IMG/VR virus record: IMGVR_UViG_3300032312_000606
Location: 1-44,635 of that record
Source: a virus
Taxonomy: Duplodnaviria > Caudoviricetes
Reading direction: 5' to 3' (one strand)
DNA length: 44,635 nt
The notes beneath the pieces were generated by a model. It searched no databases. It was given only the letters and a program-made list of their open reading frames with translations, and was not told the origin of the DNA. Both the position numbers and the translations under genes were made by a program. Below are positions 2,701 to 15,093 of the stretch, one piece after another (position 1 is the first letter of the stretch; the number at the start of each line of letters is the position of its first letter).

Positions 2701-2846
2701 TTCTTCTTCGCTTGGCTCAATGCACCTCCCTGTTGTTGACTGCCGCCCTTCGGCTGCAGGCTAGTACCGTCCAGCTTCTCGCCCATGGCAATGCGCTTAT
2801 GCATCGGCACATTGATCCCTTTCTGCTCTTGGTCACTGGTAGCCAA
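2697..2846 (-). CDS. 49-aa small protein (absent from ORF track)
   Basis: TTG start after a GGGAGGG RBS; MATSDQEQKGINVPMHKRIAMGEKLDGTSLQPKGGSQQQGGALSQAKKK. Fills the gap and its stop overlaps the next start (GTGA). Confidence 0.6.
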   Translation of the reverse strand: MATSDQEQKGINVPMHKRIAMGEKLDGTSLQPKGGSQQQGGALSQAKKK

Positions 2847-5409
2847 TTGGCCCTCCCTGTTTCATGGTGATGTCCAATACAGCCTTCTCGCCATCCTGCT
2901 TCAACTTGGCGGCATCGCGGGTCAACCGGGCTGTCTCGATGCGCTCCTTCATCTCCTGATCGCCCATAGCAATGGCCAATCGGAGTTGGAGTTCTTCCAT
3001 GTCCTTCTGGTGGTCCTGCTGCATCTTCTGCATCTGGATCTGGATGTCTGCCGCGGCTTCCTGCTCCTTGAGAGCCATCTCAGCCTGATCGCGGGCAGCG
3101 CGACGTTGGGTCTCTGCCATGCTGGTCTGCAGGACAACCTCGCCATCCGGCGTAAGTTGGGGCTTCGGCTTGAACTGCTCCATCTGCTTAACCATCTGCT
3201 GGATGACAGGCATGATGCCGGCCAGCGTCTGCTGGGCGTCCATGTCGACGTGCTGAGAGGCAGCGCCAAACATCTTGTCGACCATGCCCGGGTCCTGCAG
3301 CAGTTCGTACTCTTCCATCTTGCGACCCAGAGACTTCTCGACGTACCCATTCATGCGGTTCAGGTACCAGAGCACAATGTGCTGCTTAATGTGCTCGACC
3401 GCTTTGGGCAGGAATCCCGGGGCGATAAACGGGTTGCCACCGAATATCGGGTTCTTTGCGAAGTCTAGGTGCGCTTGAATGTGACCCAGATGGTCCTGCT
3501 CTGGGTAGGCAAAGGCTGCCTGACCGATAGCCATGGCCACATTCTCGTTGGCAGCGTCCATCTTGGTCGGCGGAGGCGTATCAACCATCAGTTCATTGAT
3601 ACCCGGCACCTTGATCTGCTTTAGGAACCGCTCAATCACCACTTTGCGGTTAAACAGGTCGGGATTCTTCTCCATGATGGCCATGACGGCTTGCGTCTGC
3701 GCCATACGCTGCGTTTCCGAGAAGATGTGCGGATCCGACACCGGAATGACGTCGGTAATGCGGGCAAAATCTTCTCGAGTGATGTCCAGATCCTCAACAA
3801 CCTCGCCGCGGCGCATGTCATCGAGGTACCAGCGGTTGATTCGGCTCAAAATCCGCAGAACTCGACCCTGTGACTCATGCAAACGGGCATGAATGGCAGA
3901 GAACACCGCTGCACCCTGCTCAATCATCGCCTGCGTAGTGCCTACAGGCGCGTTTGACGTCACGTCAGCGATCTTTTCCTCTGCGGTGGTCACCACACCC
4001 TTGGCAGCGTTCGTCAGCCAGCCCAGAAGCTCCATGAGAACCGGGCTCGGCGGGTTGAACGGCATCGGCATGGCAATCTTGCGCACGTCATCGACGCCCG
4101 GGGCTGCCTCAATCTCGGAAACCTGCGTCACTTCGACCTGCTGGGACTGACCGGACACCTTGGCGCCCTTCAGTTTCAGCATGGTCGCTGCGTTATTGAT
4201 GTGAGCCGAGTCCATCAGGGCACGCAAAGCACCCGTCAGAGCCGCTGAGAGGCCGCCTATGAGGTGCGGGAGACCCACGGCATATGCACCCCGCCACGGA
4301 ATGAATTTGAACTCAACAATCCAGTCCAATTTGGTCTGGGTTTCGTCGCCTTCTTCCCAGTTGCGGTACAAACCGACGACTTCCGTCTCTAGTTCGTCAA
4401 TCATGAGGATGTACGGGGCCAATTCGCCCTTCGTATACGGGTCATCCTCAAGCTCTAGCCATGTGTATACATGGTAGATACGGCGCACACCGTCTTCGTT
4501 GCTACCAGCACTCCGCCCCTCGACCTTATCGGTCGCCTTTTGGGGGCCGGTCGGCTCAGGATCCATGGTGGCGCGGATGAATGACGTGTCCCGGTACAGG
4601 CCAGAGTCGATCCGGCGCTTGAATTCGTACTCAGAGATGTCGTCAACTTCGGTAATGCGCTGCGCGGTGTAGAAGTTAGCCGCGGAGAAGGGCAGCAGCA
4701 CGTTGTCGATGGGCAGAAACTGCGCACAGGGGCGCTGCTTACGCTCGTCGTACCAGATCTTCATGTACTGAGAACCACCCAGCGGCAATTGAGTGAGCAT
4801 CTGCTCCTCTTCGTCGCGGAATTCCTCAATCTGCTCCGTCAACTGCCAGTTCATGAACTCCGACTTGCGCTCTGCAGAGTCGGTTTTTTCCTGAGTGACG
4901 TCGCCAAGGATCTTGGTGCGGGTCGGACCATCAGGCGGGAACAGTTCCTTAATCGCTCTGGACGCAAAATCCACGCACGCTTCGGCCATAACCGGGTGGA
5001 CAACCTTGCTGGCACCCTGAAAGTTAGCTCCACCGGGGGCGTCATTACCCAAACCGGTGCGGCGGATGCCGTCTTCGTACTGCTTGTCGCGCTCCTTGCG
5101 GGCTTCCTTGTCCTTCTCGGCCAGTTCGATGTACCGCAGAGCCAGCTTTTGGACGTCGAAGTTGTCAATCCTGTCGGAGTCAGCAAGGTTCTCATAGAAG
5201 TCTTCAGACTCCATGGGGCCCTTGGTGTCTAGCTTGACCACTACAGAGCCATCCGGAAGCTCTTCAAGCTCCGAATCGTCCAGTTCTACGTCGACCTCCA
5301 TGCCTTCTTCAACCTCCGGAGCGCCTTCTGCCCCTTCAGGTTGGGCATCCATGGGGATACCCTCAACAAAGCGGTCGAACTCAGGATCAATCGGGAATTG
5401 TTCAGCCAT
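2833..5409 (-). CDS. Portal protein (P22-like, with long C-terminal coiled-coil barrel)
   Basis: 858 aa; HPVMAEACVDF..RA.KELFP, MLTQLPLGGSQYMK, GVVTTAEEK, APVGTTQAMIEQG; Gln-rich helical tail; lies downstream of terminase. Confidence 0.85.
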   Translation of the reverse strand: MAEQFPIDPEFDRFVEGIPMDAQPEGAEGAPEVEEGMEVDVELDDSELEELPDGSVVVKLDTKGPMESEDFYENLADSDRIDNFDVQKLALRYIELAEKDKEARKERDKQYEDGIRRTGLGNDAPGGANFQGASKVVHPVMAEACVDFASRAIKELFPPDGPTRTKILGDVTQEKTDSAERKSEFMNWQLTEQIEEFRDEEEQMLTQLPLGGSQYMKIWYDERKQRPCAQFLPIDNVLLPFSAANFYTAQRITEVDDISEYEFKRRIDSGLYRDTSFIRATMDPEPTGPQKATDKVEGRSAGSNEDGVRRIYHVYTWLELEDDPYTKGELAPYILMIDELETEVVGLYRNWEEGDETQTKLDWIVEFKFIPWRGAYAVGLPHLIGGLSAALTGALRALMDSAHINNAATMLKLKGAKVSGQSQQVEVTQVSEIEAAPGVDDVRKIAMPMPFNPPSPVLMELLGWLTNAAKGVVTTAEEKIADVTSNAPVGTTQAMIEQGAAVFSAIHARLHESQGRVLRILSRINRWYLDDMRRGEVVEDLDITREDFARITDVIPVSDPHIFSETQRMAQTQAVMAIMEKNPDLFNRKVVIERFLKQIKVPGINELMVDTPPPTKMDAANENVAMAIGQAAFAYPEQDHLGHIQAHLDFAKNPIFGGNPFIAPGFLPKAVEHIKQHIVLWYLNRMNGYVEKSLGRKMEEYELLQDPGMVDKMFGAASQHVDMDAQQTLAGIMPVIQQMVKQMEQFKPKPQLTPDGEVVLQTSMAETQRRAARDQAEMALKEQEAAADIQIQMQKMQQDHQKDMEELQLRLAIAMGDQEMKERIETARLTRDAAKLKQDGEKAVLDITMKQGGPIGYQ

Positions 5410-8400
5410 TTTTTGACCTCTTCTTCATCTTCTTGACCGGTCCACCGGCCTTGAAACCTTCGCGTATCAGATGGCGAATGTATGCGTCACTAAACTCTTG
5501 ACTCGGCAAGCCCTCACCCTTCACGCCAAGAGCCAAATCGTAGTACCCGGGGCCCTGCCGCTCTGGGTTCATCTCTTTGAACCTTCTGTGCCAGTCAGGC
5601 AGGAACACTTCCGTCGGGGTAGGCATCACGTTGTAGCCCAAGTCCTCACCCTTCATCAGCACCGGGAAACCCGGGTGAAGGTCCGGACGGTACATGAACT
5701 CTTTCTCTAGACTGAACAGGCGCGGGCCAGCAGCAAACGTCGGCACGTCACCACCATGCTCCGGGTGTAGCAAGCCGGGTTCCGTCTCAGCCTTCAGGAT
5801 GTCCGTCGGACGGAAGATCACACCCTTGCCGCTCTTCTCTCCGCCAAGGGATACACCGCCCTTACTCGGCGGGATACCCTGACCCATCATGATGTCTGCC
5901 AGTGCAGCACGCTTCTCAAACGTGTCTGCCTGCTTCCAGATGCCGGGGTCGCGGATGTCTGCACCCTCACCGAAGGTCAGAGCCAAGTTCTTGTTGATCT
6001 TCGCTTCCAACTCCGGCGAGAGCTTGCCTTCCTTCATGGCAGCTCTGAACTCCCGCTTAAGCTTGTCAAACACGATCGGGTTGGTCTTCAGTTGGGTGGC
6101 CGACCCAAGCATCGTCGTCCACGCCGTCTCCGGGGTCGACAGGTTTGCCAGACGTGCAGCAGTAGTCGCTTCACCGACGCCCCACACCTTGCCGGCATAG
6201 TTGGGGTCCACAGCACTGAGGGCAGAGAACGATGCACCACCGATGTTGCCGCCGCCTACCCGGGTGCGGTCTGCCTGCGTGGTGACAGTCTTCTTGAAGC
6301 CCTTCTCCATCAGTTGGCCAAAGGCTTCGGATGGCTTTACTTGCGATTGCGACTTGATGTACTTGGCAGCCTCACGGCCAGCAGCAGCACGTCCAGCAGC
6401 ATCCATGTCTCCCTTGAATGCCTCTTCGATGAGACTGGCGGCCTTCTTGACCATGCCAGCCTTTGATACCGTGCCTCCACCAGCGTATCCACGCATGGCG
6501 CGTACCAAGTCATCATGGGTAGTTTTGTCGCCACCCACACGATCCCAGATGGTGTGATGCACCAGATGCTGATAGAACGGGTCAAGCGACGGGTCCAGAG
6601 CCATGTCTAGAGCGTTTTGACGCGCAGCCAGACGCGCCACAGCCTCCTCGCCACCCTCACCCTTGCCGCGCTTCATGAACTTGGCTGCTTCCTTGCCACC
6701 GCCTTCTGTGTTCAGGCGCAGTTGGCGGGCATCCAGCGTTGGAAAGTCACCGCGGCCAAGCATGGCGCCCATGAACCCGCTCTTGGCAGGGCCGATACCC
6801 GGCACCGACTGCGACAGTTCCCGGTAACGCTCGGGGCCACCCAGAATCATGGCAGGCACGTCCATCGAAGAGCCCGACAGGTTCTCTGCCGCCCAGCGCA
6901 TGTCATCCGCTAGAACATTCGGCATACCGAAGGGAGAGAACTTCTCTTGAAGGTCCTTCAGCACCCGGGGGTCAATCTCACCACGCTCTGCAGCGTCCAG
7001 ATACCGCTGGCCTTCCGGGGAGCCTAGCCACTCGGAGAATGCACCTTCCGGTCTTACACGCTCGTCAGTCTTCGGCAGTTTCATGCCGGTCTTGGTAGCA
7101 GATGCGTGCGACAGGCCACCACGGTTCACGCTTGACCGGGTGATGGTGTAAGCCTTGATCAGATCTCTCGCGCCGATGTCACCCTTCTGGGCACGCTTCA
7201 CCTGATCGGCCATGAAGTTGCCAAAGCCCTTCTGGATGTAGTCAGGCACCTCTGGTACGTTGACCGCCTCGGCCACCTCACCCATAGGCTTCCACTGCCA
7301 GTCAGCAATGTGCTTCGACTCAGGGTCTGCGTACTTCTGAATGTTGCCCTTGGCAGACGTCGCGCCCTCAACGGCGCCCTTGATCATCTTGACTATGCCG
7401 CCCTTAGCAAACTCAGGGATGCTTTTAGTGACATACCCACCGCGCTTCATGCCCTTGGGACCGAATTTGGGATCTGAGAAGTGCGGGTCCGGGGTGAACT
7501 CGTTGGTTTTTTTGAAACGCTCCAGTTCGTCTCGGGTGACATAACGCGGCATATTGTCTGGCAAAAATGCTATTCGCGGCCCATATCCAGCAGTCACATC
7601 GACCATGCCAATCTTGTCTAGGTCGTCGGTGACTTCCGTCCCGCTCTCACGGACATACCGCTGCAGGTAGGGCCAGTAGTCCTCATTGACCGGGCCGTTT
7701 CTTTTGCCCTTGATCTGGGTGATTATCCCCGGCTGAGTCTTTGTCCATTCCACATAACCGGGCATGGGTTGGTTAACCCATTTTCCAGTCTCATCTCGAT
7801 AACCAGCACTAGCGGCCACCATGCGCCTAAATTGCGGGTCCGCATAATCACCGGTTGACTCAAGAGTTGACATGCGCCTTTCCAACTCTGCGGCTTCTTC
7901 CGGCGATGCTGTCTTAAGCCACCTCTGTGGGTCTGCGCCTCGACCCGCCTTGCTAATTTCAACTGTTGCATGCGGCCTGTTCTTGGTATCGCGGAACGAC
8001 AGCACCTGAGCATCACCGCTCTTAATGGCTTCCCAGCCGCCATGGCCGTAGGACGAACTGCCCTCATGGGCAGCATCTTCAATCCAATCCGGGTGACTGC
8101 TGGGTGGCTCGTACCCTTCTACAGAGTGACCCATAATCTGGGACTCTTTCGAGAACTGACCGGGCTTGTCCAACTGGACCATACGATAGCCACCGAACTC
8201 ACGGTGCGGCGTCAGGTTGGCAGCAGACGTTGCCTCTGCTCTGGCCATCTGCGCCGCCTTCTCGGCGTCATACCGGGAGGTGCGCTTGACAGCGTCAGTC
8301 ACGCTCAACCGGCTCAAGTCTTCCGGCTTTAAGTCGCCGCGCCTCATGTCGCTGCGCAACACATCCATGATGTGGTTAAAGCCAAGGTTGCCCATGACTT

Positions 8401-11125
8401 GGTCTGAGTTCATCAACCCATACACCTGCGCACCCGGATCCACCTTGGATAGCCACGGGTTCTGCTCAATCACTTGGCGCGAGAAGTCAGGGTCTTGGCC
8501 AAAGTGTCTGGCCTCTTGCGCCTGCTTCGGCGTCAACCACGGATTCGGGGGCTCGGCCATCTGCCGTCCGGGCCTGAACGCAGCGGTGATGTTCTCACGC
8601 TCCGCGCCGGTAATCTTCGGCAGGTACTCCTCGCTGGCCAGTTTCCACGCGTCGATGTTCTTTATCTGACGGTCAGACAGGTTTTCCCACATCCGGCCAA
8701 AGTCGGACTTGGCAATACCAGTATGCGGGAACCCGGCTGCCGTTCTCCTCATTGCGGTATCTGACAGCAACCCTATGTCCTGCATCGGCATGTGCAGCGG
8801 GCTCATTTCATTGATGTTGTCCATGTCCTCGCGGACAGTGGCCATCTCGCCATCAATGGTGCGCATACGCGCCTGACGCCACGCATCAGGATCTCGCACC
8901 TCGGGCGGAACCGGGCCAGTCTCAATGGCCTGCCGCTTTGACTCCAATGTGTCCAGTCGGGCACGCTTCTCATCCAGCATGGCCGCACGTTTCGCTGGCC
9001 ACTCTTCTGCCAACTTGAGGATGGGGTCATCAGGCGTAGACATCTGCGTCCTGACGTAGTTGGACAACTGCTTGTCACGCCAGTTGATCAACGCCTTGTC
9101 ACGCGTCGCCCCCTCAGAACTGTCACTCATCATTAAGTTTTCGCCATGCCTCGGACGCAGCATCGGCCTGCCGGTATCTAGCCACTGGCCACCGGTGGGC
9201 TTCACTACAGCCATCCGGGGGTCCATGATGGCACCAGACTCCATGGCTGACTCTAGAGCGCCTCTGACGGCCTCTCCTGCAGCCGGAGCGGCCTTCTGGA
9301 TGCCACTCTTCACCGCACGGTATGCGGGCTTGGCCACTACAGCAGCAGCAGGCACTCCAGTGAGCACGGTGTCAATGGCAGCAGCAAGTTTTGCGTCCTC
9401 TAAATTGCCACGCAGGTATTCAGCGCCGGCTTCTGCGAATGGCACGCCAATAGAAGCAGGCACATCTAGCATCTGGGCCTGAATCTCACTGGGATCCAGC
9501 GGCTGCCTCGAACGAGTCAGACCAGCCATGCCGCGGCCTACGTTCTTGCCGATGGCGCCGCCTTCCGCATACTTTTCTTCGCTCTTCGAGCCATACCTCG
9601 GTTTCTTGCCCAGCACTAGCGGGCCAATCTGAATCACCTCTTCAGCGCCCAGAATCGGCTCCATGGTGCGACGATCGTAGAAGTACCCATGGCGCTCCGG
9701 GTCATACCCAATCTGCGCCCACTCCGGGTGGTCCAGATACTCCTTGGCGCGGGCGACTGCCTCTTCCTCTGTGATTGGGTTCCACTCACCCTGAATGCGT
9801 GCCCATGGACCCTTGGCGCTCTCGCCAGTGGCCACACGGAATGCCTGCTCAGGCGAGCCACTCATGGTCACGTTCTTCACCGACGACACCGGGCCATAGT
9901 GGGTTGGCATACCCTCGGGGTGGATGCTGTTGATCCACACCCCATGGTTCTGGTACGCGGGGATGTCTAGGCGCAGGCCAGTCTGAGTTCCGGCGGGGAT
10001 CTCTCCCGTCTTGCCGTACTTCTCTTTCTGCTTACCACGCAGAGCACGCATGGCATCTTCCTGCGTTGCTGGCTGAGGAACGAAGGCATAGGGCTCCACC
10101 GGCTTGAACCGCCGAACCATCTCCTCGTATTCAGCAGCAGTCAGTTCGCCACCCTTCAGCTTCTGCGCCGCCTCAGTCAACTGCGGCACACGCTTGGTGA
10201 CGTCCTTGTAATCCATGTCGATGCGGCTGACATTTGGCTCGTCCTCAACCATGGACTTGACTGCCTTGGCCGCCTTCTTGAGCATTCCGCCCTTCGACAT
10301 CATGACGGCGCCACCCTCCTTCTTAGTCAAGTCGGGCACAGACAAATCATACGTTCCGACATTGCCCACAGCAGACTTGATATTGGTTGGATCAAACACG
10401 CCAATCGTTACCGCTTCCTTTGTCGGCTTCTTGCCTTGCCCAAAACGCTCAAGCAACTTGACGCTGTCATATCCTGCGTCTTTAAGTCCCTTGATGATCA
10501 GATGATTGTCTAACAGCGAATACAGAGGAACCTTGTAGTTAAGCCGATCAATCTCAGAAGCCACCGGATCTATATCAGGCGCATATCCACCGCCCAATGA
10601 CTTGTTTAGTTCAACATCCCACTCTGCCAATTTGCGCACGTTATCCGGCGATACGTCCGCGCCTGCCTTTTCCAACAACTCCAAGCCAGACATTGCGGAT
10701 TGTGGAACCAAAGGACTTGATGCAGGCAGTTGCGTCAAATCCAATGGATTCTTGACGTTGGCATGAACCGGATAAACCGCCGACCCCTTCTTGGGCTTGC
10801 TGCCCATTGCTCGACGACCACCTGCCACAAACTGGTTGGCCAACTCTGGATCTTCAGAGAACCAGTATGTCGGCCTCATGGTCTTGAAGTAGGGAATGTC
10901 CTTGTCGGTTCCATGGTAAAGCCTCTGCTTTACTGCGCTGCCCTCAAGCATCTTCTCTAGGTTGGCCTTGCGCTCTGGGGCAGGCAGCACATCCTTGGCA
11001 ACCTGCATAGCCTTCTTGAGCAGCCCGCCCTTGGCCATGCGCTCTTCAATCATCTGGCGCAACTCGGGATTGCGCACCTTGGGCGCCCCGATAATCTCAT
11101 CAAAGATTTTGTCGGCGTTGCTCAC
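5402..11125 (-). CDS. Large polyvalent protein (ART-like, PcfJ-like, HhH-GPD glycosylase-like and two unassigned modules)
   Basis: 1907 aa between terL and portal. RLYHGT..WFS..VFDPTNIKSA (ART-like); MGHSVEGY..SFRD..PHATVEI..QIKGKRN (PcfJ-like); VPGIGPAKS..PTLD (HhH). Modules are separated by GG motifs. Confidence 0.75.
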   Translation of the reverse strand: MSNADKIFDEIIGAPKVRNPELRQMIEERMAKGGLLKKAMQVAKDVLPAPERKANLEKMLEGSAVKQRLYHGTDKDIPYFKTMRPTYWFSEDPELANQFVAGGRRAMGSKPKKGSAVYPVHANVKNPLDLTQLPASSPLVPQSAMSGLELLEKAGADVSPDNVRKLAEWDVELNKSLGGGYAPDIDPVASEIDRLNYKVPLYSLLDNHLIIKGLKDAGYDSVKLLERFGQGKKPTKEAVTIGVFDPTNIKSAVGNVGTYDLSVPDLTKKEGGAVMMSKGGMLKKAAKAVKSMVEDEPNVSRIDMDYKDVTKRVPQLTEAAQKLKGGELTAAEYEEMVRRFKPVEPYAFVPQPATQEDAMRALRGKQKEKYGKTGEIPAGTQTGLRLDIPAYQNHGVWINSIHPEGMPTHYGPVSSVKNVTMSGSPEQAFRVATGESAKGPWARIQGEWNPITEEEAVARAKEYLDHPEWAQIGYDPERHGYFYDRRTMEPILGAEEVIQIGPLVLGKKPRYGSKSEEKYAEGGAIGKNVGRGMAGLTRSRQPLDPSEIQAQMLDVPASIGVPFAEAGAEYLRGNLEDAKLAAAIDTVLTGVPAAAVVAKPAYRAVKSGIQKAAPAAGEAVRGALESAMESGAIMDPRMAVVKPTGGQWLDTGRPMLRPRHGENLMMSDSSEGATRDKALINWRDKQLSNYVRTQMSTPDDPILKLAEEWPAKRAAMLDEKRARLDTLESKRQAIETGPVPPEVRDPDAWRQARMRTIDGEMATVREDMDNINEMSPLHMPMQDIGLLSDTAMRRTAAGFPHTGIAKSDFGRMWENLSDRQIKNIDAWKLASEEYLPKITGAERENITAAFRPGRQMAEPPNPWLTPKQAQEARHFGQDPDFSRQVIEQNPWLSKVDPGAQVYGLMNSDQVMGNLGFNHIMDVLRSDMRRGDLKPEDLSRLSVTDAVKRTSRYDAEKAAQMARAEATSAANLTPHREFGGYRMVQLDKPGQFSKESQIMGHSVEGYEPPSSHPDWIEDAAHEGSSSYGHGGWEAIKSGDAQVLSFRDTKNRPHATVEISKAGRGADPQRWLKTASPEEAAELERRMSTLESTGDYADPQFRRMVAASAGYRDETGKWVNQPMPGYVEWTKTQPGIITQIKGKRNGPVNEDYWPYLQRYVRESGTEVTDDLDKIGMVDVTAGYGPRIAFLPDNMPRYVTRDELERFKKTNEFTPDPHFSDPKFGPKGMKRGGYVTKSIPEFAKGGIVKMIKGAVEGATSAKGNIQKYADPESKHIADWQWKPMGEVAEAVNVPEVPDYIQKGFGNFMADQVKRAQKGDIGARDLIKAYTITRSSVNRGGLSHASATKTGMKLPKTDERVRPEGAFSEWLGSPEGQRYLDAAERGEIDPRVLKDLQEKFSPFGMPNVLADDMRWAAENLSGSSMDVPAMILGGPERYRELSQSVPGIGPAKSGFMGAMLGRGDFPTLDARQLRLNTEGGGKEAAKFMKRGKGEGGEEAVARLAARQNALDMALDPSLDPFYQHLVHHTIWDRVGGDKTTHDDLVRAMRGYAGGGTVSKAGMVKKAASLIEEAFKGDMDAAGRAAAGREAAKYIKSQSQVKPSEAFGQLMEKGFKKTVTTQADRTRVGGGNIGGASFSALSAVDPNYAGKVWGVGEATTAARLANLSTPETAWTTMLGSATQLKTNPIVFDKLKREFRAAMKEGKLSPELEAKINKNLALTFGEGADIRDPGIWKQADTFEKRAALADIMMGQGIPPSKGGVSLGGEKSGKGVIFRPTDILKAETEPGLLHPEHGGDVPTFAAGPRLFSLEKEFMYRPDLHPGFPVLMKGEDLGYNVMPTPTEVFLPDWHRRFKEMNPERQGPGYYDLALGVKGEGLPSQEFSDAYIRHLIREGFKAGGPVKKMKKRSKNG

Positions 11126-11152: not shown

Positions 11153-12568
11153 TTATACAGCATAGGGATTTACCCGGCGAGGCATACCTGAATCAGCATA
11201 ATCGTCCTCGTCCCAGTCATCAGGCGGCGGCGGGTCAATCTCAAGCCAGCCACCATCACGCAAATATCTTAAGGCTTGGGTACAGGCGTCGACATAATCA
11301 TCGTGCGTCGACTCAGGGAACGAGCAGATCTGCGACACAAAGCCCTCTGCCCAGTCTCTGACATAACCCTTGCGCACCGTGCTCTCAGGGATCCACACCC
11401 GGCCTCGAGCGATGATGTTCGACACGATATTCAGACGCTGCACCTTGTCAGCACGCCCGGGGTTATATGCCCGCACCGGCAAGTGAGCACGCTGCAGATC
11501 CTGAATGAGACTGATGCCGGCAGACTTGTCTTCCACCAGTATCAGGTCGACACGCTTCCGCTCCTTACCCTCGCCGAAGACAGTCTCGTACTCGTCGATG
11601 ACCTTGGGTCGCAGGTCCGGGTACTGCAGGTGGTCTTGCCAGCAGTCGATGACCATGGCGGCCATGGGACCATCCAGCGGCTTGAACACGCCGAAGGTGA
11701 TGCAGGCAGTCGGGTCACCCGTCGTCTTCTCGGTGTATGCACAGTCGTATGACTGGATGATGTACTCGAACTTGGGGAACGGCTTGTCAGCAGGCCAGAG
11801 GCGGAACATGTCACGCTTGACGATGCCCGACTCCTCGGGGTCTATGATCTCGGCGTAGATCTCCTGCCGGCCTAGCTTCGTGCCCTCGTACTGCAGGATC
11901 TGCTTCTGGAAGTTCGCAGACAGGTTGGCGATGTTGTCGTAGGTCGACGCGGTCGTCACACAGACGTCGTCGCCGTCACGCCCGACCAGTTCGATGATCA
12001 GGTCCTTGGGGCGCGGCGTGGTCGTCGCCACGATCCTTGTGCGGGCTCCCAGACGCACGCTGAACATGATCTGGTCCCACGCTTCGTTCAGGTAGTCCCA
12101 TGCGGCCAACTCGTCTAGCCACGCTCCATGGAACTGTGGACCGCGGAACCGCTCTGGCTCCGACGCCGGGATGCCTTTGATCAGGCTCCCGTTGGTCAGC
12201 TTGATCTCATGGTATGCCCGGTTGTAGTCAGCGATCAGAGCCTGCGGGATGACGCTAATCAACCCTGAGTCACCCTCGAAGCAGGTGGCACGCACGTCAC
12301 TCGAGGTCGGAGCCCCCACGAGCCAACGGGTGTTGGGTTCTTTCCACGCCCACCATGAGATCTGCTCTGCCGCGGTTCTGGTCTTCCCCGCTCCCCGTCC
12401 TGCGAGAAGTAGCCAGATAGACCACCAGTCACCCTGCGGGACAATCTGGTGCTTGTGGGCGATTGTGAGCCACTTGGCACGCCATGCCCATGCGACCTGA
12501 TCCTCTGGCGGGAGCAGCGCAAACTTCTTGCGCGTCTCCGGGTCCTTGAGGATCTCCTCGACAGTCAT
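11153..12568 (-). CDS. terL: Terminase large subunit
   Basis: Walker A AGRGAGKT, Walker B AWLDE, motif III TTTP, RNase H-like nuclease SYDCA...HDDYVDA. Confidence 0.95.
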   Translation of the reverse strand: MTVEEILKDPETRKKFALLPPEDQVAWAWRAKWLTIAHKHQIVPQGDWWSIWLLLAGRGAGKTRTAAEQISWWAWKEPNTRWLVGAPTSSDVRATCFEGDSGLISVIPQALIADYNRAYHEIKLTNGSLIKGIPASEPERFRGPQFHGAWLDELAAWDYLNEAWDQIMFSVRLGARTRIVATTTPRPKDLIIELVGRDGDDVCVTTASTYDNIANLSANFQKQILQYEGTKLGRQEIYAEIIDPEESGIVKRDMFRLWPADKPFPKFEYIIQSYDCAYTEKTTGDPTACITFGVFKPLDGPMAAMVIDCWQDHLQYPDLRPKVIDEYETVFGEGKERKRVDLILVEDKSAGISLIQDLQRAHLPVRAYNPGRADKVQRLNIVSNIIARGRVWIPESTVRKGYVRDWAEGFVSQICSFPESTHDDYVDACTQALRYLRDGGWLEIDPPPPDDWDEDDYADSGMPRRVNPYAV

Positions 12569-12747: not shown

Positions 12748-12904
12748 CGCTAGCAGGGGCTGGCAACTGAGCCTCCGCCTCTTCCTTGATGCGCACAGCG
12801 AGCGGCCAGACGTTGTGGCCGGTGGGCAGGGCGCTCAGTGCGGTCAGGATGGCATTCACCTCGACCGGGTTGAACACCAGCGTGATCTTTTGCTCTTCAC
12901 TCAT
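12740..12904 (-). CDS. 54-aa hypothetical protein (absent from ORF track)
   Basis: AAGGAG RBS, MSEEQKITLVFNPVEVNAILTALSALP...; overlaps both neighbours and fills the gap. Confidence 0.6.
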   Translation of the reverse strand: MSEEQKITLVFNPVEVNAILTALSALPTGHNVWPLAVRIKEEAEAQLPAPASDD

Positions 12905-13439
12905 CAATGCTCTCCTTCTTGCGCGTCAGTTCCATGGACTGCAGGATTGAATCAAACAGACCCTTCGTGTCTACGTCGACCTTCAGGGGATTCTCGGCGT
13001 CGCCAGCCAGCGCGACACGATCGCCGTACCGCTTGGGATTCCACTTGGCCAGTAACTTGAGTTTGATGTCGGCCCGGGCTCTGATCAGTTGCACATACCC
13101 AGAGTCGATGCGACCACCACCCTCAGACAGGATGCGCTCGGGCTCATCACTGATCTCACGCAGGATGTCTTCAGCAATTGCGTCCTGCCCCATTTCCCGC
13201 GCATGTGCGATGGCTGCCGAAAGTTTTTCGTCGCGATGCATCCAACCATACACAGTACGCCACTCGGGCATGTGTGCGTCTCTGCAGATCTGTCTCAATG
13301 GCTCTCCCTCTGAGAGTCTCTGAACCATCTCTTCTGCTATCTCTGGAGTGTATTTAGATGGGCGACCGCCACTGCCTTTCGGCGGGCCGGGTTTCTTCCG
13401 CGGCGCGGGCTCCATCTCTTCTGATCGCGTTTCAGCCAT
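12897..13439 (-). CDS. terS: Terminase small subunit (Sf6 gp1-like)
   Basis: GRPSKYTPEIAEEMVQRLSEGEPLRQICRD..MP..TVYGW HTH; C-terminal KLLAKWNPKRYGD. Confidence 0.9.
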   Translation of the reverse strand: MAETRSEEMEPAPRKKPGPPKGSGGRPSKYTPEIAEEMVQRLSEGEPLRQICRDAHMPEWRTVYGWMHRDEKLSAAIAHAREMGQDAIAEDILREISDEPERILSEGGGRIDSGYVQLIRARADIKLKLLAKWNPKRYGDRVALAGDAENPLKVDVDTKGLFDSILQSMELTRKKESIDE

Positions 13440-13720
13440 TACGCTTATTCCTGCGATTGGTTAATGATGCGTCTAGTGTAACGCACCAGCGGATAGGTGC
13501 CACATTCCCGATTTCTTTTCGCGGCGGCGAAAGGCTAGCCGTCGGGACCGTGTGGCGGCGGTGCAATACATCCGGTTTTGCTACTTTGGCTCATCACCTG
13601 ACAGTAGAGGTGTGTCGATGCTTTGTTGCCGTTTTGCTCCACTACCTGTGACCGTGTATGTGTGCCTCTACGCACTCAACGAGTCTCGGCATGATGCAAG
13701 CCTACACCGGAAGGTCGGCT

Positions 13721-13768
13721 GCCCCTTACGCTTACACGTTTCGCCCATTCAGGGCTCATCAGAGAGGC
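13721..13768 (-). ncRNA. Type I hammerhead ribozyme
   Basis: Minus strand reads GCCUCU-CUGAUGA-GCCC(UGAAU)GGGC-GAAA-CGU(GUAA)GCG-UA^AGGGGC. The core is complete and stems I, II and III all pair. GUA cleavage triplet, predicted cut between 13727 and 13726. Confidence 0.9.
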
Positions 13769-13769
13769 T

Positions 13770-13843
13770 TGGTAGCGGGACCCAGACTCGCACTGGGGTC
13801 TCTGGCATATGAAGCCAGCGTGGTGCTACTCCACTATCCCGCG
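13770..13843 (-). tRNA. tRNA-Met(CAU), initiator-like, with encoded CCA
   Basis: Acceptor CGCGGGA/UCCCGCU+ACCA with a C1.U72 mismatch; D stem GUGG/CCAC; anticodon arm CUGGC-UUCAUAU-GCCAG; T arm CCCAG-UGCGAGU-CUGGG; 74 nt. Confidence 0.85.
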
Positions 13844-13844
13844 C

Positions 13845-13873
13845 TTGATAAGTAAGAAAACAGCAATGATACT
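13845..13873 (+). promoter_or_regulatory. Possible sigma70 promoter for the phosphoesterase gene
   Basis: TTGATA-17 nt-GATACT in the AT-rich gap about 40 nt upstream of the ATG at 13912. Confidence 0.4.
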
Positions 13874-13911
13874 TGTTGAGTATGACAAAATCCCTTAAAG
13901 GATAGGACGTT

Positions 13912-15093
13912 ATGGATCATTTACGAGAGTTTGCCACGGTTCGCGAACACGAAATTCTTGACGCGATCTCTTTATGCGGGACACAACAGAAAGCAGCAGA
14001 GCATTTGAACATCTCTACTCGCTCACTTGAGCGGGGGCTGCGAAGACTCAAACTGCGGGCGGCTCGAAGAGGAGTGAGCCCCGAAAATGACATGGTTCAT
14101 TCGGTCCCCGAAGGATTCATAGTCAAAGGTATCAGCACATATTATAACCAAACTGGCAAACCAGTTGGGCAGTGGGTGAAGTCGCGAGAAGACAAGAAAA
14201 ACAACCGTGACATTCAGGAAGCCTTCCTCGAAGCATTTAGAGACGACATTGTTCGCGTCGCTCCAACCCACCCAAGCACCACTCCACCAGACAGCAATCT
14301 ACTGAACATCTACGTCTTCGGTGACCCGCACATCGGTCAGCGTAGCTGGCATGAGGAAGTAGGGCATGACCATGATCTGGCTATGGCGGAGGCTCTGTTC
14401 ACGAAGGCCCATGACGACCTTGTGGAGCGGTCCCCGGCTGCAACTACCGGCCTGATCCTCAACCTCGGTGACTACTTCCACGCTGACGACGGCAACAACA
14501 TGACGTCCCGTAGCGGTCACCCTCTTGATGTCGACGGGCGATACCAGAAGGTGCGCAAGGTCGGGTTCCGCATCCTGCGGTCGATGATCCAGATGTGCCT
14601 ACGCAAGCACGACAAGGTCCTCGTCTGGAACATCATCGGCAATCATGACGACTACTCTGCTGTGGATTTGTCTCTGTGGCTGCATGTCGCCTACGAGAAC
14701 GAGCCCCGGGTACACGTTGAGACATCGGCCAACAAGTTCTACTACCTTCGGTTTGGCAAGGTGATGATTGCTGCCACCCACGGTGATTCTGTGAAGCCTG
14801 ACCAGATGCTAGGCATCATGGCTTCCGACCAGCCGGAGATGTGGGGGCAATGCGCTCACAGATACGCCCATCTCGGTCACGTTCACCACAAGTCTCTAAA
14901 AGATCTACCCGGTGTATCGGTCGAGACACACCGGGTTCTTCAGCCTTCAGATCTTTGGTCTCATAACTCCGGCTATCGGAGCCAGCGAGATGCGCAGTGC
15001 ATCACCTACCACTGCAACTTCGGGGAGTACGCACGGACCATTGTCAATCCGAGCATGATGGAACGCTCTTCTGCTCCTCAAGCCAGCAGTTAA
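13912..15093 (+). CDS. HTH + calcineurin-like metallophosphoesterase
   Basis: N-terminal HTH (GTQQKAAEHLNISTRSLER); motifs GDPH, GDYFH, GNHD, THGD, GHVHH. Confidence 0.85.
   Translation: MDHLREFATVREHEILDAISLCGTQQKAAEHLNISTRSLERGLRRLKLRAARRGVSPENDMVHSVPEGFIVKGISTYYNQTGKPVGQWVKSREDKKNNRDIQEAFLEAFRDDIVRVAPTHPSTTPPDSNLLNIYVFGDPHIGQRSWHEEVGHDHDLAMAEALFTKAHDDLVERSPAATTGLILNLGDYFHADDGNNMTSRSGHPLDVDGRYQKVRKVGFRILRSMIQMCLRKHDKVLVWNIIGNHDDYSAVDLSLWLHVAYENEPRVHVETSANKFYYLRFGKVMIAATHGDSVKPDQMLGIMASDQPEMWGQCAHRYAHLGHVHHKSLKDLPGVSVETHRVLQPSDLWSHNSGYRSQRDAQCITYHCNFGEYARTIVNPSMMERSSAPQASS

Follow-up and report, generated by a model that had tools for sequence, protein, structure and literature searches.

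What does a self-cleaving ribozyme do when it lies directly behind a phage tRNA gene and ahead of the terminase genes? In bacteria and phages, the roles of such ribozymes are described as largely elusive (PMC6765202, PMC6155905). Two precedents frame the question. Prophage type I hammerheads have been proposed to cut long phage transcripts into gene-sized pieces, so that phage hammerheads acting on polycistronic RNA are already known (PMC3088659). Theta ribozymes, which are HDV-like, cut at the 3' end of phage tRNAs and have been proposed to make that end (PMC10879173).

The locus described here lies in a virus record of 44,635 bases with a completeness of about 80%, and this whole stretch will be referred to as the window. 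A sequence-only reading of it had proposed that a hammerhead placed behind tRNA(CAU) acts as an analogue of the theta ribozymes, uncouples the tRNA from the late mRNA, and leaves on that mRNA a 5'-OH that may protect it. That reading missed a structured RNA, conserved across many unrelated phages, which fills positions 13726-13571 and whose motif begins 11 nt past the predicted cut. We consider it somewhat more probable than not that the hammerhead makes the 5' end of this knotted RNA, and the knot may shield the new end.

The Locus and Its Gene Setting

The order of genes downstream of the tRNA and the hammerhead, namely those for the small and large terminase subunits, the polyvalent protein, and the portal, is as the earlier reading had claimed (Table 1). 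On the opposite strand, the phosphoesterase/exonuclease-like gene starts 68 nt upstream of the tRNA. A search of the minus strand revealed no sigma-70 promoter, and no terminator was found between the tRNA-hammerhead pair and terS. A terminator-like hairpin, located at 14907-14936 (-) inside the phosphoesterase-like gene, would block read-through from upstream minus-strand genes to the tRNA.

Table 1. Coordinates of the features of the locus and of the neighbouring genes
Feature	Position	Strand	Basis or remark
Portal protein	2833..5409	-	
Polyvalent protein, 1907 aa, with ART-PolyVal domain	5402..11125	-	
Terminase large subunit (terL)	11153..12568	-	
Terminase small subunit (terS; Sf6-like)	12897..13439	-	
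Structured terS leader, separate element, ends in AGGA ribosome-binding site	13440..13566	-	Common to L121 and L122
Long form of the conserved pseudoknot RNA, about 155 nt; an extended COG2908-like motif	13571..13726	-	
3' strand AACCGGA, pairs with the 5' loop (pseudoknot clasp)	13571..13577	-	
3' domain, GG-A-GC at 13640-13636 facing GC-AA-AACC	13580..13640	-	By-eye sequence comparison
Loop CUCUAC, partner of 13671-13666	13604..13609	-	
Candidate kissing loop GUAGAG of a hairpin, able to pair with 13609-13604	13666..13671	-	
5' domain, helix P1 enclosing the core ACC-UUCC-GGU-GUA at 13715-13703	13696..13722	-	
Type I hammerhead with intact core; stems I, II, and III of 6, 4, and 4 bp; GUAA loop on stem III	13721..13768	-	
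Predicted cleavage site after GUA (A13727)	13726..13727	-	Hammerhead consensus (PMC3088659, PMC6765202)
tRNA(CAU) with encoded CCA and initiator-like acceptor stem	13770..13843	-	ARAGORN, Rfam
Phosphoesterase/exonuclease-like gene, 393 aa, divergent from the tRNA	13912..15093	+	

Near-identical DNA is present in river and viral metagenomes from three studies. The cassette is not an assembly artefact, because three of the four runs from these studies carry 13540-13900 in one contig, with 5 differing letters in 361. Run X19, probably of DNA, yielded just pieces, and no RNA run was listed as containing 13300-14100. No close cultured relative was found, the nearest TerL (71%) coming from an uncultured record, and three queries of the cultured-phage records returned no match covering most of the element.

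The terS leader is a structured element of 130 nt, kept both in L122 and in L121, which lacks the cassette; its first hairpin also occurs in a third relative, L406. The divergent phosphoesterase-like gene stands beside tRNA(CAU) both in the window and in L124 (2-1015; 80% identity), while the upstream region of L122 is too short to show it. An enzyme of the phosphoesterase class might conceivably remove cyclic phosphates, yet L124 has no hammerhead.

The Hammerhead Ribozyme

The letters bear out that the encoded CCA ends at 13770 and is followed by one A and then by the hammerhead from 13768. The element 13768-13721 is complete, and its hammerhead structure is both the minimum-energy and the centroid fold (-16.7 kcal/mol, z -2.06). 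The core claimed earlier (CUGAUGA, GAAA, and GUA) is indeed intact, and the stem III loop, GUAA, is of the GNRA type and is closed by a U.G pair, which one of the five differing letters, at 13736, turns into C-G. All the consensus positions are in place (C3 U4 G5 A6 N7 G8 A9, G12 A13 A14, A15.1-U16.1, and H17; PMC3088659), with three stems around the core that covary in homologues and an open-ended stem I. Searched with a structural descriptor, the window yields this site alone, and 100 first-order random sequences of equal length yield no match. When the tRNA, the downstream RNA, and the terS leader are folded together as a 414-nt context, six checked hammerhead pairs retain probabilities of 0.62-0.98.

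Covariation, which had been suggested as a check, is present: in 17 related hammerheads, hand-picked for similar length, 98.3% of the cells are paired and 9 of the 14 pairs have changed on both sides, a level equalled by 0 of 500 shuffles. The other suggested check, a search with the Rfam hammerhead models, gave no call, as the partial match to Hammerhead_3 (RF00008) scores 23.8 bits against a cut-off of 48.5; at curated cut-offs, nothing but the tRNA is matched by Rfam in the window. One relative, L344, exceeds the cut-off of RF00163 (34.4 vs 34). From its intact core and its covariation, we infer that the hammerhead is active. It may be slow in the cell because inspection by eye of the window hammerhead revealed no evident tertiary contact between stems I and II. 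The predicted products are a 5' one, consisting of the tRNA plus 43 nt with a 2',3'-cyclic phosphate, in whose fold the start of the trailer is unpaired, and a 3' one with a 5'-OH.

The tRNA and Its Distance from the Predicted Cut

ARAGORN reports the tRNA as tRNA-Met(CAT) at 13770-13843 (-), and Rfam RF00005 gives it 53.2 bits. Bacterial initiator tRNAs have an unpaired 1:72 position, G2-C71, C3-G70, and A73, three consecutive G-C pairs at 29-31, and a purine 11:pyrimidine 24 pair. The acceptor stem agrees with these rules (unpaired C1.U72, G2-C71, C3-G70, A73), but the rest of the molecule does not, since G29, G30, and C31 form two G-C pairs instead of three and positions 11 and 24 are U11-A24. 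An Ile2 (lysidine) identity was weighed as well, but the 1:72 mismatch makes it less likely. The D-loop GG is missing and position 55 is G in the window, L122, and L406, while L124, L127, and L160 have the usual bases, which would represent a paired change in the tRNA elbow. The same type of tRNA precedes terS without a hammerhead in L124, L127, L128, and L160, and therefore does not need one.

Viral contigs were scanned for a tRNA CCA end followed by a hammerhead core, which gave 120 loci and 42 matches with a real tRNA. A strict descriptor accepts eight of these 42, in which the tRNAs are for Lys, Asp, Leu, and Thr and the trailers measure 44-72 nt; five further loci look hammerhead-like by eye and failed it. 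Only 13 of 41 hammerhead-led units are tRNA-adjacent; these 13 cover seven isotypes, and the spacer between tRNA and stem I varies from -2 to 9 nt.

The resemblance to theta ribozymes (Kienbeck et al. 2024, PMC10879173) lies in a self-cleaving ribozyme placed immediately 3' of phage tRNAs of many isotypes. The differences are of fold and of the side on which the cut falls. The gut-phage theta ribozymes are HDV-like and cut at their 5' edge, leaving the tRNA 3' end (PMC10879173), whereas the fold in the window is a hammerhead with no HDV-type Rfam match, and in a type I hammerhead the cut falls on the 3' side of the ribozyme itself, so that here it would define the downstream RNA and leave a long trailer, 43 nt past the CCA. 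The word hammerhead is absent from the main text of PMC10879173. The uncoupling of the tRNA and the 5'-OH on the downstream RNA do follow from the predicted cut; a theta-like trimming of the tRNA does not, both for the length of the trailers and for the minority of units that have a tRNA at all. The adjacency, as judged from these sequences, recurs, but the ribozyme is not predicted to finish the tRNA end.

Other hammerhead arrangements near tRNAs were seen along the way. Hammerhead-like elements with a long, branched stem III lie directly behind tRNA-Glu in L037, L043, L052, L059, and L068; they have no knotted RNA, and in the three that were scanned the downstream sequence has no Rfam match. 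In L077 (1526-1604, +), a hammerhead stands between tRNA-Asp and tRNA-Gly, and its predicted cut would leave a short leader on tRNA-Gly. In addition, a type II hammerhead occurs about 1.2 kb upstream of terS in one relative (L186:1773-1824, +).

The Knotted RNA behind the Predicted Cut

Directly downstream of the hammerhead, the Rfam model COG2908 (RF02939) matches at 21.1 bits (E 8.4e-5), below its cut-off of 58.7 bits. The core of that motif, ACC-UUNC-GGU-GUAG inside a closing helix, is nevertheless present, and we regard the window copy, on its sequence, as a distant member of the COG2908-like RNAs below the cut-off. The first 45 nt score above the cut-off in 6 of 18 related loci, and for this reason the Rfam model appears to be the front part of a larger phage RNA. 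The 45-nt model matches the 5' domain; it has no counterpart of the 3' domain with its pseudoknot strand, of the palindromic loop, of the hammerhead, or of the minimal form described below. Its source is presumably Weinberg et al. 2017 (PMC5737381), whose supplement describes the motif and may mention some of the extension. Rfam files COG2908 as cis-regulatory, and its name led us to expect a COG2908-type phosphoesterase gene downstream; such a gene follows the knotted RNA in L445, L447, and L511, while in the window terS does.

Scans for a hammerhead plus the COG2908 motif passed 23 of 70 viral loci and, with metagenome loci included, gave 74 loci that reduce to 38 unique units. These were chosen by the hammerhead and the 5' motif, with no condition on the 3' end, and in 35 of the 38 the variable bases of the 5' loop can pair with the bases after AACC near the 3' end, compared with 34 of 570 for other dinucleotides. 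This covariation shows the predicted pairing of the 5' loop with the 3' end of the RNA. Strand exchange may turn the knot into a 6-bp helix, or the hairpin may be kept and its loop pair with the tail over 3 bp; the two models are indistinguishable because the bases involved are invariant. Pair counts from the alignment are circular for the knot, which was the criterion for selecting the rows. Between length classes, the middle and the 3' ends are misaligned by MAFFT, and the invariant bases are in part imposed by the search patterns. Before counting, L310, L539, L630, and L633 were dropped as likely chance matches, and L400, which runs into a contig end, was left out of the loop analyses.

Long forms of the RNA measure 78-225 nt, with stems inserted into a minimal core. 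For its outer two pairs, P1 borrows the final two bases of stem I, so that ribozyme and RNA overlap. The 3' domain of the window copy folds no better than shuffles (z 0.55), and into a different fold, so its model rests on comparison; an automatic search found the central GG helix in 15 of 28 cases. This domain includes a purine loop (AGUA, about 13585-13582) that we take to be loop-E-like. L122 and L406 differ in their stems yet retain the loop pair GUAGAG/CUCUAC, and the CUCUAC loop was placed by comparison with these two relatives instead of by an energy minimum. Likenesses to the SRP Alu domain, phi29 pRNA, SAM-I, preQ1, and group I introns were dropped, having no Rfam support.

An Accessory Cassette

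Membership was checked with a model, R1, built from 35 relatives that include members above the COG2908 cut-off and exclude the window, L122, and L406. It ranks 13726-13571 first in the window (17 bits, E 0.0034; the next hit has 7.5 bits). Among 80 terS relatives, 72 of which have at least 450 nt upstream, it matched L122 alone. The close relative L121 (TerS 91%, TerL 97%) differs from L122 by exactly the tRNA, the hammerhead, and the knotted RNA, while L406 has the cassette and no terS in 1.37 kb downstream. The cassette is accessory, since L121 with its 91% identical TerS lacks precisely these three elements, and it is not bound to the terminase operon: its siting at terS holds for the window, and the link is loose in relatives. 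No protein neighbour was common to the 84 flanking ORFs scanned (of 115), and no mobility gene was tied to the cassette.

Two contigs carry a tandem second copy of the knotted RNA without a hammerhead of its own (L392:1143-1511, +; L363:1696-1745, +), and behind each copy lies a short repeat that might fold into a small H-type pseudoknot whose loop is rich in A. In L338 (1-80, -), a Betaproteobacteria-1 RNA (RF02932) above the cut-off lies about 190 nt downstream of a knotted RNA led by a hammerhead, and it hints weakly at the host group of this phage.

Probable Ways of Making the 5' End

In 35 of 41 hammerhead-led units the distance from the predicted cut to the ACC motif is 11-13 nt, and in the other six it is 15-17 nt. 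Two scans that did not use the hammerhead returned 54 unique RNAs, of which 34 have TAAATA, 14 a hammerhead, and 6 neither. This exclusivity is partly built in, because the stretch of 8-30 nt searched for TAAATA is the one in which a hammerhead would lie. Three of the six with neither were judged to be chance matches. In the 34 RNAs, the TAAATA ends 14-17 nt before the ACC motif. We take TAAATA to be the T4 late-promoter box, with transcription presumably starting about 6 nt later, and such a start would place the 5' end within a few bases of the position of the hammerhead cut. As a negative control, the genome_contigs scan, whose pattern was too loose (about 3600 estimated matches), was passed through the helix-plus-knot filter: 2 of 120 passed, and none of them had a hammerhead.

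The hammerhead also precedes RNAs of other kinds. In L028 (1447-1723, +), a tRNA-Asp is followed by a type I hammerhead, a YrlA RNA above the Rfam cut-off, and a tRNA-Thr; stem I overlaps the end helix of the Y RNA just as it overlaps P1 in the window. A scan for the hammerhead only gave 27 unique cases, of which 12 lead the strict motif, 2 lead variants of it, 11 lead a small ORF, and 2 lead something else; the 11 run into their ORF behind just a short hairpin, and 4 of the 27 are tRNA-adjacent. By this distribution the hammerhead is, at the level of prediction, a general maker of 5' ends, the knot being its commonest and not its sole client.

Some details of these other cases deserve mention. 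The small ORF, about 80 aa in relatives, follows the hammerheads at about 700-800 in L765, L767, L769, L771, L775, L780, L781, L783, L785, L790, and L792, where the 3' strand of stem I can refold into a 5' hairpin after the predicted cut; relatives with the same ORF have a knotted RNA between hammerhead and gene. In L772 (about 745-935, +), strongly paired sequence of about 190 nt, with no Rfam match, separates a hammerhead from a tRNA-Pro, and this stretch is possibly another client RNA.

The Minimal Form and the Loop Palindromes

The knot also occurs in a minimal form of 25 nt. Four such knots are found in L344 (841-1910, +), each 9 nt before the ATG of a short gene with no visible Shine-Dalgarno sequence; two are led by hammerheads and one lies behind a tRNA-like element, and loop and tail covary between the copies. 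In a scan for this form, 18 of 102 matches had both variable pairs complementary, where chance would give about 1 in 8. Eleven copies on seven contigs all lie 8-10 nt before an ORF, and the other seven matches are probably noise, given that 18 of 102 is near the chance rate.

In 17 of 83 unique long forms a tRNA follows within 11 nt, and these therefore head no mRNA. Hairpin loops that contain a 6-nt palindrome occur in 17 of 28 sequence clusters, compared with 28.7% of 2800 shuffles, the palindromes being of many different kinds and some of the apparent kissing matches being ordinary stems; by an energy-minimum method the figures are 41 of 82 and 10.5%. The long form in the window has its complementary loop pair in place of a palindrome.

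Proposed Mechanism and Alternatives

The mechanism we favour runs as follows. The tRNA, the hammerhead, and the knotted RNA are contiguous and, as the relatives show, are gained or lost as one cassette, and a single transcript would span all three. Self-cleavage at 13727/13726, expected from the intact core and the covariation, would give the knotted RNA a defined start. Stem I would then open, freeing two bases to complete P1 and leaving 19 unpaired bases behind the CCA, from which host nucleases would finish the tRNA. The 5' loop pairs with the 3' end of the RNA, as the covariation shows. Up to this point we think the sequence of steps likely as a whole. In the weakest step, the knot would serve as a protective cap or clasp for a free RNA of ~155 nt or, if nothing cuts behind the knot, for the terS-terL-portal mRNA. 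This last step falls short of an even chance in our judgement. A cap or clasp was chosen because the position just behind the new 5' end is common to all forms, and there is a precedent for such blocking by structure, in that a flaviviral xrRNA stops the bacterial RNase J1 in vitro (PMC5760640). The knot is absent behind 11 of 27 hammerheads, which weakens the notion that it is needed as a cap, and the invariant bases and palindromic loops exceed what a steric cap needs, the invariant bases suggesting a specific recognition. Since no terminator was found before terS, the late mRNA of this phage may begin with the knot, and for the same reason the late-mRNA protection by a 5'-OH that the sequence-only reading proposed may still hold; the immediate client of the predicted cut is the knotted RNA.

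The main rival to the cap accepts that the hammerhead makes the 5' end and holds that the long RNA is free-standing, a small counterpart of GOLLD and ROOL whose copies associate by kissing loops and whose role, as scaffold or decoy, is exerted in trans; the knot would then be a module for binding or assembly instead of a cap. The long forms closely followed by tRNAs, the excess of loop palindromes over shuffles, and the loop pair kept in L122 and L406 all favour it, as does the fact that GOLLD and ROOL lie near prophage tRNAs (PMC5737381) and form homo-oligomers (PMC12286853). It is harder to reconcile with the 25-nt form, which has no such loop and sits before ORFs, with the want of a common neighbour among the flanking ORFs scanned, with those kissing matches that are plain stems, and with the window itself, where nothing evident ends the RNA before terS; we hold it to be rather improbable. 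Were the knot instead a cis-acting element that recruits ribosomes or binds a ligand for the next gene, the Rfam classification, the fixed 8-10 nt between minimal form and start codons lacking a visible Shine-Dalgarno sequence, and the several long forms that precede phosphoesterase or phosphate-binding-protein genes would be accounted for. The long forms that precede tRNAs would not, the downstream genes are mutually unrelated, and in the window the 130-nt leader with its own ribosome-binding site separates knot from terS, all of which makes this account unlikely.

The original proposal, a theta analogue that helps to process the tRNA 3' end while the late mRNA owes its stability to the 5'-OH alone, draws on the recurrent adjacency with its seven isotypes among knot-led units, on the 11 hammerheads that lead an mRNA with just a hairpin, and on the finding of no terminator before terS. 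It has to set aside trailers of 43-72 nt, the 28 of 41 hammerhead-led units without an adjacent tRNA, and the related tRNA(CAU) upstream of terS without any ribozyme, and it ignores the conserved RNA behind the cut; we give it the same small chance as the cis-acting element. That the knot is a ribozyme of an undescribed class, cleaving or ligating, which together with the hammerhead excises or circularises the RNA, would suit a compact nested pseudoknot with few invariant bases and variable inserted stems, and self-cleaving ribozymes are described to cluster in bacterial and phage DNA (PMC6765202). We think this very unlikely: no Rfam ribozyme matches, a second cut beside that of the hammerhead would be redundant, and promoter-led copies would carry a 5' triphosphate, so that a 5'-OH chemistry would not be conserved. 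Least probable of all is a hitch-hiking cassette of no benefit to this phage, in spite of its presence in just one of 80 terS relatives and its different placement in L406, for there are compensatory changes in both RNAs and in the tRNA, and no mobility gene was tied to the cassette among the flanking ORFs scanned.

Going beyond the 5'-end maker, one may picture a phage start cassette in which a hammerhead or a late promoter makes the 5' end and the RNA is capped against decay by a small conserved pseudoknot, of a class not yet described, that lies 10-17 nt further on. The long form would clasp both ends of a kissing-loop cargo into a stable, self-associating RNA gene within tRNA arrays, the 25-nt form would head single mRNAs, and in this phage the knot would cap the terminase operon. 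Taken in full, this picture is a doubtful one.

Relation to Known RNAs and Significance

GOLLD and ROOL are several hundred nucleotides in length. They resemble the present RNA in being phage RNAs of unknown function near tRNA genes, and they form homo-oligomers (PMC5737381, PMC12286853), whereas the knotted RNA, with its 78-225 nt and no Rfam match, belongs with them neither by match nor by length; no link of theirs to a hammerhead was seen. The prophage type I hammerheads (Perreault et al. 2011, PMC3088659; RF00163) share the core, the topology, and the phage intergenic setting. The one described here differs in being fused at a fixed spacing to a structured RNA, in lying directly behind a tRNA, and in scoring below the Rfam cut-off; in PMC3088659, the word tRNA occurs in the reference list alone. 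YrlA Y RNA (RF02553; PMC4201824) is likewise a stable non-tRNA RNA that is also found in phages, and its L028 copy is led by a tRNA and a hammerhead, but the window RNA has no YrlA match and no tRNA-like domain, and a YrlA RNA was recognised at L028 alone. In the exoribonuclease-resistant xrRNAs (PMC5760640), too, a compact pseudoknot lies close to the 5' end of viral RNAs. They are known from eukaryotic RNA viruses and have a three-way junction with a ring-like fold, which blocks 5'-3' exoribonucleases without protein; the likeness shown here is one of position and pseudoknot alone.

Searches of the open-access literature returned no description of natural phage tRNA-hammerhead pairs or of a longer COG2908 RNA; the open-access papers that mention COG2908 are, by their titles and the starts of their abstracts, on other subjects. 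The type I hammerhead and the COG2908-like RNA are known kinds, and their arrangement here was not found described.

What these findings offer is a hammerhead with a defined, recurring client, which would give phage ribozymes a testable job. Nature supplies the controls, in the form of RNAs led by a hammerhead or by a promoter, with or without a tRNA, with a long or a 25-nt knot, and with a Y RNA replacing the knot. The motif that Rfam calls cis-regulatory is suggested to be the front half of a larger phage RNA. If it is true that the knot protects 5' ends, it could serve as a compact stabiliser for RNA engineering in bacteria and, should the start cassette be real, its knot would be the counterpart of the xrRNAs in bacterial viruses. 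The hammerheads would also complement the theta ribozymes: where theta ribozymes make the 3' ends of phage tRNAs, hammerheads would make the 5' ends of those RNAs in tRNA transcripts that RNase P does not excise.
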